Source: Candidatus Eiseniibacteriota bacterium
Lineage (GTDB): Bacteria; Eisenbacteria; RBG-16-71-46; CAVPCR01
DNA: 64,000 bases
Direction: 5' to 3'
NCBI GenBank assembly: GCA_963823555.1
Contig: CAWGMA010000001.1
Coordinates: forward strand, 160,001 to 224,000
Shown: in pieces, positions 7,569-33,743 of the stretch
Layout: every line of letters begins with the position of its first letter
Position numbering within the stretch: position 1 is the first letter of the stretch
Notes under the pieces: model-generated
Told to the model about the DNA's origin: nothing
What the model saw: the letters and a program-made list of their open reading frames with translations, nothing else
Databases searched by the model: none
Position numbers and translations under genes: made by a program

Positions 7569-7596
7569 TTGACCCCCTCCGTTCCTGGGCTATGCT
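7569..7596 (+). promoter_or_regulatory. Sigma70-type promoter for the peptide/activator genes
   Basis: TTGACC-16nt-TATGCT. Confidence 0.55.
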
Positions 7597-7732
7597 GGTG
7601 CTGAGGGAGAAGTTCGCTCACTGACGGCGAGTGACTCCTCCGCGAGGTCCCCACATCCTCTCGAGGTTGTTCCCGGTGGTGCCGTCGAGCGAAAGCCGCA
7701 GTTCGCTGCGGGCGAAGGAGTTGACTTACCCC

Positions 7733-8068
7733 ATGTGTCGCCGAACGAGGTACTTGCTAATCCCTGCGTGCCTCCTCCTTCTCACGGCCGTGGTGCCCCC
7801 TCAGCCGGCCTTGGGCAATGGTGATCCAGACGAGGTCATCGAAAAGACCGAACCGTTTCCGCCGCTTCCACCCTTCCAGATTCCACCCTCGTCACCACCC
7901 GCGCACGGGTTCCAGGGAGACCCGGACGAGCTACCGGACGGGGGCTACGACGATGAGGGGGGCTCCGGAGGGCCGACGCTCCCCGGAGACAGCGGTATGC
8001 GCGGAACCGGAGACTGGATCTTCATGATGCTCAACGTGATGAGGCTCGCATTCTCGGCCGCGTATTGA
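7733..8068 (+). CDS. Small secreted protein / putative signalling pro-peptide (111 aa)
   Basis: AAGGAG upstream; signal peptide MCRRTRYLLIPACLLLLTAVVPPQPALG; GDPDE occurs twice; hydrophobic C-terminal helix. Confidence 0.65.
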   Translation: MCRRTRYLLIPACLLLLTAVVPPQPALGNGDPDEVIEKTEPFPPLPPFQIPPSSPPAHGFQGDPDELPDGGYDDEGGSGGPTLPGDSGMRGTGDWIFMMLNVMRLAFSAAY

Positions 8069-8123
8069 TCTCGTCGCTGTTCCACGACCCCGTGGCTAGC
8101 TCCCAGAGGTGCATGGGCACCGA

Positions 8124-11100
8124 ATGTCGGAGATCAAGGTGAGGAAGGGGAAACCCGCCGCCCCAGAGGTCGCAGCCTGCGCCCCCGGCTCCCGGGCCGA
8201 GTTCGAGAAGCTTCTCCAGCTCGGCAATGGGCAGTTCGAGTGTGATAACCGCAAGGAGGCGCTTGCCTTCTATGCCCAGGCCTGGGAACTCCTGTTAGCG
8301 GCGGACCGGGCAGCAACTTCCGACCCCGGAGACCTCCCGGGGATGGCCGGAGAGGCCGTCTTCCTGTGCCGCCGGATGGGCGAGGTCCATCAGCTGCGCG
8401 GCGACTTCGAGGCTGCCCGCCATGTCCTCGCCGAGGCCGAGCGCCGGCTCGAGGAGCATCCTGACGACCATGAGCTGGGACAAGTTCTCGCCATCCGGGG
8501 CTCGATCGCGATCGACCTCGGCCGGTTCTCCCAGGCTCAACGCCTTCTGAAGCGGGCATATGAGCTCCTCAAGAGCTCGCCCGACCATCACGCCTTCGGC
8601 GCCCTCGAGCGCCGCCTCGGCAAGCTGTACCTGCGCATGGGACGGCCACAGGAGGCCCGGACCTACTTCGAGAGTGCGCTCGCCACCTTCCGTCGCATCG
8701 GCGACCAGCGCGGCATCGCCGGCACGCTCAATAACCTCGGCCTCATCCACAAGCTCGCCTGCGAGTGGATGGAGGCGGTCCGGGTCATGGAGAAGGGCCT
8801 CGTTCTGAACGAGATCCTCGCTGACGAGGCTCAGATCGGCGCCCTGTGCATCAACCTCGGTGTCGTGCACATGAAGATCGGCCAGTGGCAGCGGGCTGAG
8901 GAACGCCTCGACCGGGCCATCGCCTGCAATGCGCGCATCGGCAACCGCCGTGGCCTTGCCAACGCGTACATCGCCCGGGCCAATCTGGCGCTCCGCCTTC
9001 GTCAGTGGCGGGATGCCGAGCGCTGGCTCGAGCAGGCGCTCGAGATCGCGCACCCCCTCGGCCTCGTGCGGGCCGAGGGCTTGGCCCTCGAATCCCTGGG
9101 CGATCTTGCCGCCGATCGCGGCGACTTCGCACGTGCCGAGGAGCATCTGCGCGCCGGCCTCGAGCTTGCCCGCCCGCTGGGCGCGGACAACGAGCTCATC
9201 GGGGAGCTCGGGCGGCGTCTGGGGGAAGTGTGCGCTTCCACGGATCGTCCCGACGAAGCGCTGGCCCTCGTTGAGGAAGCCATCCATATCGCGCGCAAGG
9301 TCGGTGATCTCTACGAGGAGGCACTCTGTCATCGCCTCTTCGCGCGGATCCACGGTCTCCGGGGAGAGATCAAGCTGTTCCGCGAGCATGCGGCTCAGAT
9401 CATCGGTCGTCTCTCGCATATGGGGGAGAGGCGCGAGCAAGCGCGCACCTTCCTGGCCCTCGGCGATGTCTGGATGGCCCAGCGCTCCGCCCTTGCCGAG
9501 TCATGGCTCGAGGAAGCGCAGGTTTCCTATCAGCGGGCCGAGACCCTGGCGCTCGGCCTCGAGCTGCGCGGGGAGGCGGCGCTCGCCTCGCTCCGACTCG
9601 CCGAGCTCGAGCGCGAGCAGGGGCGGCTCGACCAGGCGCTTGTACGCATCGGGAGCGCGCTGCACCAGGCCGGGGAAGGAGAGCCGGCGATCCGTGAGGA
9701 GCTCGTTCGCCTCCGGGGCGAGGTCGAGGACGCCATGGCGGCCGGCTACGGGCCGAAGGCGGCCGAGCGCGAGGCCTTCCAGGAAGTCACGAAGCTCTAT
9801 TCGGGTCGCGCCGATGTCGATGCTGTGCTCGAGAACCTGATTCGTCTGATCGAGGAGCGGTCGGGGTCCGACCGGGCCTTCTGCGCCTGGGCTCCCAAGG
9901 AAGCGCCGCCAGCGGTCTGCGCGACCACCGGTTTCCGGCGGAGCGAGGCCACACGGATCCTGAACGGGCTCGGGCGCGGGCTCGTGGCCGAGCTCATCGC
10001 CGATGATCGTCCGCTCATTGCCACCGATCCCGAGGATGATCCCCGACTCCAATTCATCGGCCATCGCGATGGCAGCTCCGCTCTCTCCATAGCCGTCATG
10101 CCCTTCCAGATCCCGGATCAGGTACAGGGCATCGTCTATGTGGAGCGCTCACCGGGCAATCATGCCGGCCCCTATCGCGCCGCCGATATCGCTCTGCTCT
10201 CGATGCTCACGAACGTCGTAGCCATCGCCGCCGTCGAGGCAGAACGCGCGCGCCGGCTCACCGAGGGGGTAGCGGCCGCCGACCGTCCGCCGGCCCTGGC
10301 AAGCATCATCACCGGCAACTCGGAGATGCTGCGCATCCTGAACCTGCTCGAGCGTGTCGCATCGACGCCGGCGAGAGTCCTCTTGCTGGGCGAGACCGGA
10401 ACCGGCAAGGGGCTTCTCGCCAGCGCATTGCATCACTTGAGCCCACGGGCGCAGGAGCCGTTTCTGCAGATCAACTGCGCGGCGTTGCCGGAGCCGCTCC
10501 TCGAGAGCGAGCTCTTCGGGCACGTGCAGGGAGCGTTCACCGGCGCCATCCGGGAGAAGCTCGGGCTGTTCGCGGAAGCAGGGGCCGGTACCATCTTCCT
10601 CGATGAAATCGACAAGATGACGCCTTCCATGCAGGCGAAGCTCTTGCACGTTCTCGACCGCCAGGAAGTGCGGCTCGTCGGCGACACCAAGTGGCGCCAG
10701 ATCCACTGTCGAGTGGTGAGCGCTGCCAACGTCGACCTCCGCGAGCTCATTCGCAAGGGCGAATTCCTGGAGGATCTCTACTACCGGCTGAATGAGTTCT
10801 CGGTGCTGGTGCCCCCGCTTCGCGATCGCCCGGATGATGTTCTGCTCCTGGCGCGGCACTTCATCGAGAAATCAGCGGTTCGGATGGGGCGTCATCCGCG
10901 CGGCATGGATCCGGAGGTCGAGCGCCTGCTCGTGAGCTACGAATGGCCGGGTAACGTGCGCGAGCTCGAGAAGACCGTCGAGCGTATGGTCGTACTTGCG
11001 ATGGACGATGCCCCGCTCGGGCTCGACCTCCTGCCCGAGGGTCTTGTCAGCCCGTCCTCATCGCTCAAGGCGGGCACGACGTTGCGCGAGGAGATCCGTC

Positions 11101-11285
11101 GACTCGAAGCCCGGATGATCGGCCAGTCGCTCCGCGAGAACGGATGGAACAAGCTGCGCACGGCGCGCGCGCTCAAGCTGTCCTATCCCGCTCTGCTCAA
11201 GAAGATCCGCGAGTATGATCTCGATCGTCGCCGAAACGGCGGCAGCGCTCCCTCCCGACGCAAGAGCGTTAACAGTCAGATATAA
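8124..11285 (+). CDS. Sigma54-dependent enhancer-binding protein with N-terminal TPR array, GAF, AAA+ and Fis-type HTH
   Basis: Many TPR-like repeats (e.g. AGTLNNLGLIH, INLGVVHMKIGQW); GAF-like segment; GETGTGK, ESELFGHVQGAFTGA, FLDEID, WPGNVREL and a C-terminal HTH; start 8109 or 8124. Confidence 0.9.
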   Translation: MSEIKVRKGKPAAPEVAACAPGSRAEFEKLLQLGNGQFECDNRKEALAFYAQAWELLLAADRAATSDPGDLPGMAGEAVFLCRRMGEVHQLRGDFEAARHVLAEAERRLEEHPDDHELGQVLAIRGSIAIDLGRFSQAQRLLKRAYELLKSSPDHHAFGALERRLGKLYLRMGRPQEARTYFESALATFRRIGDQRGIAGTLNNLGLIHKLACEWMEAVRVMEKGLVLNEILADEAQIGALCINLGVVHMKIGQWQRAEERLDRAIACNARIGNRRGLANAYIARANLALRLRQWRDAERWLEQALEIAHPLGLVRAEGLALESLGDLAADRGDFARAEEHLRAGLELARPLGADNELIGELGRRLGEVCASTDRPDEALALVEEAIHIARKVGDLYEEALCHRLFARIHGLRGEIKLFREHAAQIIGRLSHMGERREQARTFLALGDVWMAQRSALAESWLEEAQVSYQRAETLALGLELRGEAALASLRLAELEREQGRLDQALVRIGSALHQAGEGEPAIREELVRLRGEVEDAMAAGYGPKAAEREAFQEVTKLYSGRADVDAVLENLIRLIEERSGSDRAFCAWAPKEAPPAVCATTGFRRSEATRILNGLGRGLVAELIADDRPLIATDPEDDPRLQFIGHRDGSSALSIAVMPFQIPDQVQGIVYVERSPGNHAGPYRAADIALLSMLTNVVAIAAVEAERARRLTEGVAAADRPPALASIITGNSEMLRILNLLERVASTPARVLLLGETGTGKGLLASALHHLSPRAQEPFLQINCAALPEPLLESELFGHVQGAFTGAIREKLGLFAEAGAGTIFLDEIDKMTPSMQAKLLHVLDRQEVRLVGDTKWRQIHCRVVSAANVDLRELIRKGEFLEDLYYRLNEFSVLVPPLRDRPDDVLLLARHFIEKSAVRMGRHPRGMDPEVERLLVSYEWPGNVRELEKTVERMVVLAMDDAPLGLDLLPEGLVSPSSSLKAGTTLREEIRRLEARMIGQSLRENGWNKLRTARALKLSYPALLKKIREYDLDRRRNGGSAPSRRKSVNSQI

Positions 11286-11445
11286 CTCGGATTGCCATTC
11301 CCAGTTTCTTTGAACACAACTGGTTGTGGCTGTCGTTTCGTTTCGATGGAAATTAAGTTGATAGTTTGCGGCCGGTACTTGAAGACAAGGTCCACCCGCA
11401 GCAGCCGCCCCACATGCTCAACTCGTTACAAAGGATAGAGTTGAG
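11270..11445. promoter_or_regulatory. AT-rich enhancer region with candidate UAS and IHF-like sites
   Basis: Motif at 11270-11285; inverted repeat ctcaactc-N13-gagttgag at 11417-11445; TCAA-N4-TTA IHF-like site at about 11418-11428. Confidence 0.45.
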
Positions 11446-11471
11446 GCTCAGGACGCAATCCCCAATCGGAT

Positions 11472-11487
11472 TGGCATGCTTCTGGCT
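11472..11487 (+). promoter_or_regulatory. Sigma54 (-24/-12) promoter
   Basis: TGGCATGCTTCTGGCT: GG(11473-74)-N10-GC(11485-86). Confidence 0.7.
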
Positions 11488-11496
11488 GAGGACAAT

Positions 11497-11783
11497 GCGT
11501 GGAGTGGGGACCTCCTAGGACTCCCTGGGGTATTCGGAGTCTCGAGGCCTCCGGACAGATCTCTTCCTCAACTGCAGCCTGGGCTGTCCGGAGTATCTCG
11601 AACCCGAATACCTCGGGGGTCCGAATTCATCATCTTGGTGTGGATGAGCTGAACCGCCTGCTCATCCGATCACCTCTGAATTCGCCACTCCCCGCATGGC
11701 CAAGGCTCCGGCGGTTCAACAAGCGTCTTGGCATCGGGGGGTGTGACGCGGCCTCGGGTTCGTCGACCCGAGGCCGTTTTCTT
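11497..11783 (+). ncRNA. Putative novel structured non-coding RNA (~285 nt)
   Basis: Starts at the predicted sigma54 TSS. Stems: P1 11495-11507/11685-11697, long P2 11518-11622, P3 11623-11683, P4 11699-11732. A 9-bp loop-loop complementarity is present and the RNA ends in an intrinsic terminator. Confidence 0.7.
11748..11783 (+). terminator. Intrinsic terminator
   Basis: gcggcctcgggtt-cgtc-gacccgaggccgt followed by a T-rich tail. Confidence 0.8.
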
Positions 11784-11963
11784 CTGGATTCTCCAATCCT
11801 CCTGCTCTGCCCACCCCAGTGGTTTCGTGTGGCGAGCGCGCTACGTGGCGTGACCTCGCTGCCGCGCTGATTCCTCGCCTGCCTGTCTCTCCAGGTTCCA
11901 TGTCCTTCCCGTATCCATTGTCCCGATAATGAGTTGAGTCTGTCCATCGGCCCTTCGGGAGGC

Positions 11964-11979
11964 TGGCATTCGAAATGCG
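11964..11979 (+). promoter_or_regulatory. Second sigma54 promoter
   Basis: TGGCATTCGAAATGCG: GG-N10-GC, 125 nt upstream of the lipoprotein gene. Confidence 0.65.
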
Positions 11980-12103
11980 TTGGGGGATCGGTGCGGGTGG
12001 CCGCAGGGCCACCCGACCGCACCGGCAAGGTGCCGCGCGGGGAAGGGCAAGCATCGCCTGCGGGCGGCCCGTTCAGGCCCGTCCGCGAAGGGAGGTGACC
12101 CCG

Positions 12104-12937
12104 ATGGCGATCCGCCAGGAACCTGAGAAGATCGGCGACACCGCTCGCGGCCGCGCCCGGCTCGTGCTCGCGGCGCCTCTCGTCGCCGTCCTCCTCCTTC
12201 TGAGTTCGGGTTGTGGGCTCGACCTCGACGATGACCCGGTCGTCGGTCCCCGCGACGTGACGCCGCCGGCGATCCCGACCGGAGTCCGTTCCGTCACCGG
12301 TGACAGCCAGGTGCAGCTCGTGTGGAACCCCAATGTCGAAGAGGATCTCGCCTGCTACCGCATCTACTGGAGTCCGGCGCCGGCAGGTCCCTACGAGTTC
12401 ATGGCCGAGACCGACATCCCCCGCTTCGTCGATCGCGATGTCGACAACGGCGTGACTTACTTCTACGCGGTGACGGCCGTCGATGTCGCAGGGAATGAGA
12501 GCGAGCTTTCGCTGGAGCTGATTCATGACACCCCTCGCCCTGCGGGGACCGATCTCGTCCTCTGGCGCGCGTCCGGCCCGAGCTGGGAGCTCTCCGGCTA
12601 CGACTTCAGCAGTTACGTGCGGCGTCCGTGGAGCTCGGTCGACGCCGACATGTACTTCAACCTGGAGAGCGGGCGTCCGGCCATGGTGGCCTCGGATCCT
12701 GCTACCGATCTGCAGGATGCCGGCTATGCCCAGCTCGATGATCTCGACTGGGCACCCCCCGCGGGCTGGACGGGCGAAGACCGCGTGACCCTCATCGAAG
12801 GCCACTGCTACTACGTCTGGACCCGCGACGACCACTACGCCAAGTTCCGTGTCACCGATCTGAATCTCGAGCGGGTGGTCATCGACTGGGCTTACCAGAT
12901 CGACAAGTCGAACCCCGAGCTCGTGAGAGGTAGGTGA
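12104..12937 (+). CDS. Lipoprotein with a fibronectin type III domain
   Basis: GGAGGTGA RBS; lipobox LLLLSSGC; Fn3 signatures PAIPTG...VQLVW...YRIY...YFYAVTAVD..GNES. Confidence 0.8.
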   Translation: MAIRQEPEKIGDTARGRARLVLAAPLVAVLLLLSSGCGLDLDDDPVVGPRDVTPPAIPTGVRSVTGDSQVQLVWNPNVEEDLACYRIYWSPAPAGPYEFMAETDIPRFVDRDVDNGVTYFYAVTAVDVAGNESELSLELIHDTPRPAGTDLVLWRASGPSWELSGYDFSSYVRRPWSSVDADMYFNLESGRPAMVASDPATDLQDAGYAQLDDLDWAPPAGWTGEDRVTLIEGHCYYVWTRDDHYAKFRVTDLNLERVVIDWAYQIDKSNPELVRGR

Positions 12938-12942
12938 TTGCC

Positions 12943-14316
12943 ATGCGCGCGCGACTTTCTCAGCTCGCGGCCGCCACTCGTGTCCTCGCCATCACGACGA
13001 TGTTCGCAGCCGCGGCCGGTGCCGCTGCCGCCGGTCCCCTCGGACCGGAGGCGCTGACGGCGGTCCCCGCCGGGTCCATCCAGGGTCCTCCGCTCAGGGT
13101 CAAGCTGTGGGTCGATCGCGGTGCCGAGGCGGTCTACTACCCGGGTGATCCGGTGTGGGTGACCTTCACGGTCAATCACGATGCCCATGTCTGCATCTAC
13201 AACATCGATACGGGGGGCAGCGTGCAGGTCCTCTTCCCGCCGCCCGGGGATCCGGGATTCGTCCGTGCCCACGAGGTCGTGGAACTGCCACGCATCGACA
13301 GCGATTTCGAGTACGTCGTCTCCGGACCGCCAGGCATCGAGACCATCGAGGCGATTGCCAGCCGGGCCCGTCTTGCGCCCTGGGATGAGGGCTGGGGTTG
13401 GGAGTGGGAGACCGAAGATTGGGACGAGCGCGACTGGGAGAACGGCCGGCACAGCGAGGACCCTGAATGCGATGACTGCGATCCTGAGCTCGAGGAGTGG
13501 GAGGAGGACTGGGATGACGGGGAAGGCTGGGGCGAGGGGGTCGGCGGGCGCAGTACTCGGCTCGATGCCCGCCCCATCGCGCCGCCGCGCCCGACGGGCA
13601 TCACGGTGTCCGGTGATCCGTTCGTGGCCATTCGTCGCGTGAACCGGCGGTTGCTTCCAGCTCCCTGCCCGGCGCGCGATTACGATACGGCGGTCCTGAC
13701 CTTCTACGTCGGGCGCCGGGTGCACTACCCCCGCTACGCCTGCAATGACTGCCATGGGCCCGTCCATGGGTTCGATCCCTACGGGGACCGGTGCTCGGTG
13801 TTCTCAGTGCGGGTGAACGTCGGCTGGGTGTACACGCCACACCACGTCGTCGTGCGCGATGTGCACGTCATCGAGCCGCGCTACGTCTACGTGCGGCATC
13901 CCGTGGTCCCGCCTCGCTACAAGCACCTGAAGCGAGCCTGGCCATCGCACGATCGCTACAAGCTGAAGAAGGAGTTCGCCGGCACCCCGACCTGGAAGGC
14001 CGTGCCGAAGCCGCCCACGACCAAGGGAATGCCGGCTACCTGGCCGGAAAAGGGGGGCTCCGAGCGGACCGGTCTCCTGTGGAAGGGGAAGGTGCGGGTC
14101 GAGCATCCGATCGAGAACGGGACCATGATCCGCGAATCAGGTGGCAAGTCGCCCCCCGCGGCGACCAAGAAGGTCAGGGGATCCGGTTCGACCAAGTCAT
14201 CCGGTGGAGACAAGGCGGCCGCCAAGTCGCAGAAGTCCGGTGCCAAGAAGAGAGCGGTCGACACGTCGGCGCAGCAGCAGAAGAAGACGGGCGGATATTC
14301 GGACAAGAAGCGCTGA
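12943..14316 (+). CDS. Secreted DUF4384-like protein with a CxxCH motif and a Lys-rich tail
   Basis: Signal peptide; KLWVDRG..AVYYPGDPV...IYNIDTGGSVQVLFP...GPPGIETIEAIAS; CNDCH at 13741-13755; start 12934 or 12943. Confidence 0.7.
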   Translation: MRARLSQLAAATRVLAITTMFAAAAGAAAAGPLGPEALTAVPAGSIQGPPLRVKLWVDRGAEAVYYPGDPVWVTFTVNHDAHVCIYNIDTGGSVQVLFPPPGDPGFVRAHEVVELPRIDSDFEYVVSGPPGIETIEAIASRARLAPWDEGWGWEWETEDWDERDWENGRHSEDPECDDCDPELEEWEEDWDDGEGWGEGVGGRSTRLDARPIAPPRPTGITVSGDPFVAIRRVNRRLLPAPCPARDYDTAVLTFYVGRRVHYPRYACNDCHGPVHGFDPYGDRCSVFSVRVNVGWVYTPHHVVVRDVHVIEPRYVYVRHPVVPPRYKHLKRAWPSHDRYKLKKEFAGTPTWKAVPKPPTTKGMPATWPEKGGSERTGLLWKGKVRVEHPIENGTMIRESGGKSPPAATKKVRGSGSTKSSGGDKAAAKSQKSGAKKRAVDTSAQQQKKTGGYSDKKR

Positions 14317-32978: not shown

Positions 32979-33743
32979 ATGCTCATCCTGACCCGCAAGC
33001 CGGGCGAGAGCGTGATGATCGAGGAGTCGGTCCGCATCACCGTTCTCGAAGTCCGCGGCAGCCAGGTGAAGCTCGGCATTCAGGCGCCGCTCGATGTGCG
33101 CGTGAACCGGGAAGAAGTGCTCGAGCGCCAGCGTGCCGAGGCGGGGTTGCCGCCCATCGCCGACCTGCCGCTGCCACCGGTCCCGCGCCAGGCCGTCGTC
33201 GCCCGGACCCGCCGGCAAGAGCCGACCGAAAGACCGCTCTCGGCGGGGCGCGGCGAGCTGCGCGCCAGGTCGGGGCGGATGCGGTCCGCGTACGAGGAGC
33301 CATCCCCCGCGAGTTCTCCGCGGGAACTGCGTGCCTCGCGGTCGCAGCGGAGCGAACGATCCCAGCGGGATCTCGCCTCCGGGCCGACCTCTCGCGACCA
33401 CCTCGACGGGCGGCGCGAGCCCGGGCGGGGAGTGGGGCACGATGGCGGCAACTCGGGCGCGATCACTCGCGACCGGGGGCGGCCGCTTGGATCGCGGCCG
33501 GCACATGATCATGATGGCGATGATCTGGCCGAGCCCGTGGTCCGCCGCTACCGGCAACCAGGGGGCCCGCGGGCTCACCGTCCCGGTCGCCTGAGCGAGC
33601 GGAAGCCCAGTCCCAATGGGGCGGGAGAGAGCCACCCCGAGGGGGATCAGGACGATTCGGATCGCGAGGTCTCGAGGCTCGACAAGGCGCCTCCCGGTGA
33701 AGGGAATCGCCGAACCCGTCGCGCTGGCGGCGAAGCGGCCTAG
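32979..33743 (+). CDS. csrA: Carbon storage regulator CsrA with a long disordered C-terminal extension (254 aa)
   Basis: [14 protein letters not shown]...[26 protein letters not shown]. Confidence 0.85.

Follow-up and report, generated by a model that had tools for sequence, protein, structure and literature searches.

A sigma54-driven non-coding RNA of Candidatus Eisenbacteria with a predicted pairing site in the leader of the adjacent peptide/activator operon

What is the function of a structured RNA that lies directly downstream of a sigma54 activator gene in an uncultured bacterial phylum? The window, i.e. the whole stretch of 64,000 nucleotides of a Candidatus Eiseniibacteriota genome (assembly GCA_963823555.1, here G000) that was analysed, carries such an RNA at 11495-11783. 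A first-pass annotation, made from the window alone, described it as an unannotated sigma54-driven RNA with a kissing loop and a possible second pseudoknot, and proposed a ribozyme, a scaffold or a ligand-binding RNA. Two things therefore have to be decided, whether the RNA is real and whether its conserved parts point to this kind of function. The elements of the RNA are the following.

11472..11486, + strand: sigma54 -24/-12 promoter of the RNA (13-15 nt between the GC of its -12 box and SL1 in 127 of 132 distinct loci)
11501..11515, + strand: SL1, a 4-bp GGAG/CUCC stem with a G-rich loop, conserved seed (173 of 206 genomes; pair probability 0.93)
11518..11622, + strand: P2, a long irregular hairpin with a pyrimidine-rich apex (covariation among order members)
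11623..11683, + strand: P3, a hairpin in the window species only, with the 9-nt loop 11650-58 (comparison with order relatives)
11686..11743, + strand: P4 (extended), loop 11707-24 with the kiss partner (fold and relatives)
11748..11783, + strand: intrinsic terminator (common to G001 and L186)

The window RNA is real: it is sigma54-driven, structured and non-coding, and it ends in an intrinsic terminator. In this respect the first-pass annotation is supported. The -24/-12 site is present at 11472-86, and the 3' end consists of a hairpin (11748-77) plus a U-run; a similar terminator hairpin is found further downstream in L180, L182 and L185. The region folds far better than its shuffles (z -7.4, 0 of 200 shuffles). 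No Rfam family scored over its gathering score in the window or in the region, and Rfam covariance models on 20 homologous loci reached 19-31 bits at best, all below cut-off. An Rfam ribozyme or riboswitch was matched neither in the window nor in these 20 loci. The RNA is not a tmRNA, RNase P, SRP or 6S RNA, as Rfam gave no such match here and the true genes are located elsewhere in G000.

All helices proposed earlier are found in the sequence, P1 with 12 of 13 pairs and the P3 and P4 segments as drawn, and the loops of P3 and P4 are exactly complementary over 9 nt (11650-58/11710-18). The favoured fold looks different in part. P1 has a pair probability of 0.001, and a fold forced to contain it is 4.8 kcal/mol worse (-147.9 vs -152.7). 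The second pseudoknot, 11510-16 with 11736-42, does consist of seven possible pairs (two of them G-U), but in a folding model without pseudoknots its pair probability is 0.000, because SL1 (0.93) and the helix 11686-94/11735-43 (0.95-0.99) already occupy its two strands. SL1 (11501-15) was absent from the earlier pairings, yet it is the most conserved part of the RNA. The 5' strand of P4 is an internal complement of SL1 and corresponds to the proposed P1. A 7-nt SL1 complement just 3' of P2 is present in five of nine order members, compared to 0-10% of shuffles per sequence and 3/116 in other families, in a test conceived once the data had been seen. Comparison with relatives thus lends some support to P1 as an alternative fold.

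Exact contigs inside the RNA, 11561-11757 and 11515-11698, are present in two sediment metatranscriptomes, each from a different study. Elsewhere in 10900-12500 no exact contig was found, and uncovered stretches prove nothing. The depth of the RNA contigs was 2.6-2.8 vs 97-464 for the exact main tmRNA contigs of the same runs; outside the tmRNA in that 20 kb, the pieces among the matches listed were short and inexact. Both contigs extend past P2, are unstranded and lack transcript ends, and so they are weak support for a transcript running past P2.

The combination of sigma54 promoter and SL1 was found in 173 of 206 genomes of Ca. Eisenbacteria, and the reversed-pattern control gave 0. A genome scan across all species yielded 119 stretches, the total being estimated at about 170; most of them carry the label Ca. 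Eisenbacteria. Relatives were located by DNA and by the lipoprotein gene. The phylum tallies, the 132 loci and the 22 lipoprotein leaders mentioned below include the unpublished genome G053, on which no conclusion hinges. Families f6, f11 and f12, which the pattern missed, carry diverged SL1 forms at the same place; an SL1 search allowing one mismatch beyond the window's order returned matches at control level. Some pattern matches are labelled as other phyla (L072, L092, L102, L109, L146, L147, L150, L156, L160 and L174). The printed records among them resemble f9, f10 or f18 copies, and the labels may be wrong.

P2 is a conserved helix as well. Among eight order members, 15 of its pairs show changes on both sides (0 of 500 shuffles). 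The structure used for this count was shifted slightly at three pairs, an error that reduces the counts and does not inflate them. In the other P2 type (68 loci) the basal 14 pairs hold, six of them with double changes, and the covariance model R1, built from the order alignment, also recovers RNAs of several other families. In f10 and f17 the P2 apex (A6 columns 38-56, e.g. L042, L043) forms a small hairpin with a loop that we take to be T-loop-like; the C-run of this apex is invariant even where the local partner is lost (f12, f3).

Many families have a further 3' hairpin, here called module B, with an invariant GGGGAUG loop core. It was counted in at least 69 of 132 loci, a lower bound as some flanks are short. 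Its genome pattern is noisy away from the locus, and RNAalifold gave a poor consensus with families mixed. The bases for a possible kiss of the P2 apex with SL1 or with module B are nearly invariant. A profile of module B recovers no match in G000 (best E 4.3) or in the loci of the order; P4 is therefore not demonstrated to be a degenerate copy of it. In f8 and f14 (L189 G047, L192 G023, L190 G017) a gene for a winged-helix AAA ATPase is located between SL1-P2 and module B; the sequence 5' of its start in G017 resembles module B, as if the gene had been inserted into the RNA. The f12 loci L200 and L201 combine a degenerate SL1 with the absence of a leader site and of a CsrA match; where other families have module B, they have another conserved 3' hairpin. 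In f13 (L084, L093, L141) a C-rich loop about 220 nt 3' of SL1 complements SL1 and is a possible internal catch.

The RNA belongs to a cassette with the gene order peptide, activator, RNA and lipoprotein, the last with its own sigma54-like site.

7569..7596, + strand: sigma70-like promoter of the peptide/activator operon, spacer 16 (by eye, putative)
7644..7658, + strand: predicted target site in the peptide/activator operon leader (SL1 complement, conserved and covarying in relatives)
7733..8068, + strand: 111-aa protein, candidate signal precursor (sequence features)
8109..11285, + strand: TPR-GAF-AAA-HTH sigma54 activator, 1058 aa (Pfam)
11260..11370, + strand: AT-rich candidate enhancer region (inference from common 6-mers)
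11964..11978, + strand: second sigma54-like promoter, before the lipoprotein gene (also in G001 and in f6, f11 and f12 loci)
12104..12937, + strand: FN3-like lipoprotein gene (ESM Atlas FN3-type clusters)
12943-14316: DUF4384 gene, 3' of the lipoprotein gene (Pfam)

The small protein is probably secreted, judging from its signal-peptide-like N-terminus (by eye); it further contains two GDPDE repeats and a hydrophobic tail and matches no Pfam or NCBIfam family. Its orthologues have a median length of 106 aa, and the motif G[DE]P[DG] is present in 67 of 88. The activator is encoded by a single full-length copy in G000 (tblastn), and the lipoprotein gene has a match in 193 of 206 genomes. Sigma70-like elements similar to that of the window are also visible upstream of the relatives' leaders. 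Among AT-rich 6-mers about 180-200 nt 5' of the promoter of the RNA, TATAAA, TATCAA and TTGATA are the most frequent (33-41 of 130 loci), and the candidate enhancer region of the window has only half-sites of them. Apart from the cassette, csrA is located at 32979-33128 of the window, with no recognisable flagellar genes among the four neighbours scanned, and two near-identical intergenic stretches of G000, each starting with a sigma54-like site, lie near 668971 and 696036 of C2.

The leader of the peptide/activator operon contains an exact 11-nt complement of SL1 (7644-54), extending to 14 pairs with one bulge, within a predicted C-rich hairpin loop that mirrors SL1. None of the other 3196 leaders called in G000 reaches an 11-nt SL1 match, and eight match at 9-10 nt; the 11-mer itself occurs six times in the genome, SL1 included. 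When the start regions of G000 were ranked by duplex across the genome, the result was not informative. Near position 2048503 of C1 in G000, on the minus strand, a sigma54-like site is followed by a run of ten C and an 8-nt complement of the SL1 loop, a possible second target.

When leaders were compared with the SL1 of their own locus, 58 of 88 loci had an exact match of at least 7 nt. The controls gave 9 of 88 (antisense strand), 10 of 88 (neighbouring upstream window), 23 of 880 (activator coding windows) and 2 of 22 (lipoprotein leaders), and shuffles led us to expect 16.8. Exact matches of at least 9 nt were found in 23 of 88 leaders vs 0 of 880 coding windows. This test was devised once the match in the window was known and covers 88 of 101 loci; of the 13 left out, 11 had no peptide or SL1 call or were near a contig end, and two had no activator hit. 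The complement occurs in 10 of 17 families, and 35 of 44 GGTCCC sites are located 93-113 nt 5' of the start codon.

Moreover, where SL1 is altered, the leader site is altered too, as seen in two f6 genomes, four genomes of the window's order and one f16 genome. Both f6 RNAs carry GGAA-type loops, and each SL1 is matched by the leader of its own locus; in L306 the match is 11 nt exact, compared to 4-5 nt with other SL1s, and L221 has 11 of 12 pairs. In the window's order, the leader has an A opposite the U-variant of SL1 in three genomes (G000, G003, G004) and a G in the fourth (G001). In the f16 genome (L246) an extra A in SL1 faces an extra U. Module B matches the leader too, with 14 nt in G007 and 9 nt in L240 and L241, including their own variant base. 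As judged from these comparisons, the conserved loop-loop complementarity of this RNA is intermolecular, between SL1 and the operon leader. At the sequence level the RNA thereby shows features of a trans-acting base-pairing sRNA, namely its own promoter and terminator, no coding function, and a conserved seed with a predicted, covarying mRNA complement.

The pairing is not uniform across the phylum. The match is shorter than 7 nt in 30 of 88 leaders. Family f10 dominates the counts with 33 loci, and such kin are not independent. Only 2 of 15 f9 leaders reach 7 nt, and f2, f18, f15, f3, f4, f5 and f12 together give 0 of 10 by the exact test, with SL1 intact in most. G003 and G004 form 11-12 pairs with one mismatch or bulge despite failing the exact test. 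Because many loci with a weak site keep SL1 intact, SL1 must have other partners or roles.

On comparative grounds we consider it probable that the RNA is an Hfq-independent sRNA whose 5' G-rich hairpin pairs with the leader of the upstream peptide/activator operon as feedback. The TPR-GAF activator, probably sensing the GDPD peptide, would fire the sigma54 promoter. The G-loop of SL1 would then kiss the C-loop of the leader, and the weak 4-bp stems would open into a duplex of 11-15 bp. Expression of peptide and activator would change in consequence, slightly more probably upwards, by freeing of the ribosome-binding region. We favour activation slightly, as several printed folds show the site paired with a purine-rich stretch before the start codon. 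In a fold model of the blocked site the opening cost of the start region had a median of 0.0, with 17 of 58 leaders easier and 6 of 58 harder to open and -0.4 kcal/mol for the window; start sites were guessed in 50 of these 58 leaders. In many families module B may provide a second G-loop contact, which the window's order, having no module B, would do without. P2-P4 and the species-specific kiss may contribute to stability or processing, and the long form may be silenced by the internal SL1 complement. Hfq was found in 0 of 61 genomes, which fits seeding by G-C rich loops as in RosA.

A more far-reaching version, in which we have clearly less confidence, is a phylum-wide circuit. Here a secreted GDPD peptide would activate the TPR-sigma54 protein, the Hfq-free sRNA would kiss and open the leader of peptide and receptor, and lineage-specific 3' domains, among them the kissing hairpins and the internal SL1 complement of the window RNA, would act as a processing-dependent safety catch. 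If true, this would be peptide communication outside Firmicutes with an autoinduction closed by an sRNA and not by a promoter.

Of the other explanations, one that does without RNA pairing keeps most weight, even though we judge it unlikely. SL1 and the leader site could be two copies, inverted relative to each other, of a single DNA operator to which a regulator binds just 3' of both promoters, the RNA having its function elsewhere. Both sites do lie shortly 3' of a promoter, and a joint change of SL1 and leader would also fit a shared DNA site, that in f6 an altered protein specificity. An operator does not explain why the SL1 stem is kept though the spacer ranges from 7 to 9 nt, nor why, in G000 and G001, the two sites are each predicted to form a hairpin loop. 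It also leaves aside that module B, far from the promoters, matches the leader in three genomes. In addition, where the leader deviates, U tends to stand opposite G. Of 44 letters that face a G beyond the C-run, 29 are U (background 32%), and 23 of these wobble cases come from f10.

Slightly lower we place a protein sponge of the CsrB/RsmZ kind, whose G-loops ending in GGA would titrate CsrA or another RNA-binding protein. The gene layout, which we take to be CrcZ-like, would suit it. CsrA is present in 179 of 206 genomes; f6 has retained the loop GGA, and f12, a family without CsrA, has not. Against this, f8 has SL1 in 8 of 8 genomes and CsrA in 0 of 8, module B being kept in both full f8 loci printed, and unpaired GGA average only about 1.2 per RNA (first 300 nt, 60 of 132 loci). 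Neither many loop GGA nor co-occurrence with CsrA, the marks of CsrB/RsmZ, was thus found, and the covarying leader site would be left unexplained. The accessible text of one report predicts low frequencies of CsrAs functional in the hag assay for Eisenbacteria (PMC13443453), a point on the side of the sponge.

We give the same low rank to a RosA-like sponge, with G-rich loops soaking up C-rich sRNAs from elsewhere in the genome. RosA, as described in the accessible part of its report, binds C-rich sRNAs via single-stranded G-rich regions (PMC8216469), and such a role would agree with the conservation of SL1 even where the leader site is weak. The partner that was found is an mRNA leader, though; a Pxr-like C-rich RNA exceeded the cut-off in 0 of 5 genomes, and the 23 intergenic sigma54 sites of G000 revealed, by eye, no obvious C-loop RNA.

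The ribozyme, scaffold or ligand-binding RNA of the first-pass annotation, dependent on the P3-P4 kiss and the second pseudoknot, appears very improbable. The kiss is unlikely by chance within one RNA: 9 bp arise in 0 of 600 whole-sequence shuffles and in 4 of 20000 shuffles of the loop letters, with a duplex energy of -15.4 kcal/mol. P3 and P4 are adjacent and similar in length, both metatranscriptome contigs reach beyond P2, and G001 keeps six of the seven pseudoknot pairs (by eye). As a conserved helix the kiss nevertheless fails, since the P3 loop sequence is missing in 8 of 8 order-level relatives, the closest ones G001 and L186 included, whose best loop-loop match is 4-6 bp (n=8). The P4 loop core CGGCGGU is common to G000, G001 and L186; in G003, G004 and L185 a U-rich run lies directly 3' of P2 (by eye). 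RNA length and 3' parts moreover differ widely among families, and the Rfam ribozyme and riboswitch models found no match. The P3-P4 kiss is, in the genomes compared, seen in the window species only. A conspicuous kissing loop in a single genome can accordingly be a private addition to what is otherwise a simple regulatory RNA.

A coding RNA for ORF 11499-11870 can practically be dismissed: its 123-codon frame is open in the window and in two relatives for all 133 codons read, but six of the eight relatives run into a stop after 9-89 codons (9-133 codons in nine order members, 3 of 9 without a start codon there), G-run lengths vary by indels across the phylum, and Pfam gives no match.

The sRNA pairing with the operon leader, which we prefer to these explanations, belongs to an undescribed sRNA family with a predicted feedback target. 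In the literature on non-coding or structured RNA of Eisenbacteria, quorum sensing, and RRNPP with sigma54 we found no description of it, subscription journals and supplements being outside the scope of this search. This supplies an uncultured phylum with a defined regulatory RNA for which a specific, covarying target is predicted, something seldom available for sRNAs known from genomes only. The pairing of SL1 with the leader is testable in vitro or in E. coli, with no need to grow the host.

The closest known system is Pxr of Myxococcus xanthus (RF01812). According to the accessible parts of three reports, it is encoded directly 3' of the sigma54 activator PxrR (Nla19), has a predicted sigma54 promoter about 260 bp after the activator gene and an essential first stem-loop, and is processed from a long precursor to short forms (PMC5684412, PMC5568312, PMC10217877). 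The sigma54 promoter of the window RNA likewise lies directly downstream of a sigma54 activator gene. Identity with Pxr was rejected, as the covariance model gave no match and the first loop is G-rich here vs C-rich in Pxr, the latter as read from a primer in the accessible text (PMC5568312). Furthermore, PxrR is a two-component regulator, whereas the activator here has a TPR-GAF input.

The Qrr RNAs of Vibrio are driven by a sigma54 activator and need Hfq, which the genomes studied here appear to lack. Their main target is the luxR mRNA and their input consists of small-molecule autoinducers acting via a phosphorelay, both unlike the window RNA. In LuxO-Qrr, as far as the accessible text goes, quorum-sensing sRNAs are wired into feedback loops (PMC2680268). 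The csRNAs of Streptococcus pneumoniae target comC, the mRNA of a peptide-signal precursor, in the part of the report available (PMC4507080). They are driven by CiaRH, a separate system, whereas the window RNA shares a cassette with its predicted target and is under sigma54; its predicted pairing is also about 90 nt 5' of the start codon, unlike that of the csRNAs on comC. RosA of Bacillus subtilis, likened here by description and not by sequence, shares G-rich single-stranded seeds, a C-rich partner, independence of Hfq and a similar length, but it binds sRNAs and has a sigma A promoter in the accessible account (PMC8216469).

A small protein with a signal-peptide-like start that adjoins a TPR protein recalls the RRNPP pairs, for which the accessible definition sets limits of 250-500 aa for the receptor and 10-100 aa for the precursor (PMC10075063). 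With 1058 aa and 111 aa (median 106) both partners lie outside these limits, and the receptor here differs by its GAF and sigma54 AAA domains, its occurrence outside Firmicutes and its sRNA output. The cassette of the window RNA is a member of none of the PxrR-Pxr, Qrr, csRNA and RRNPP families. If the peptide is a signal, it would join a Firmicutes-like peptide/TPR input to a LuxO/Pxr-like sigma54 sRNA output, with the feedback at the RNA level.
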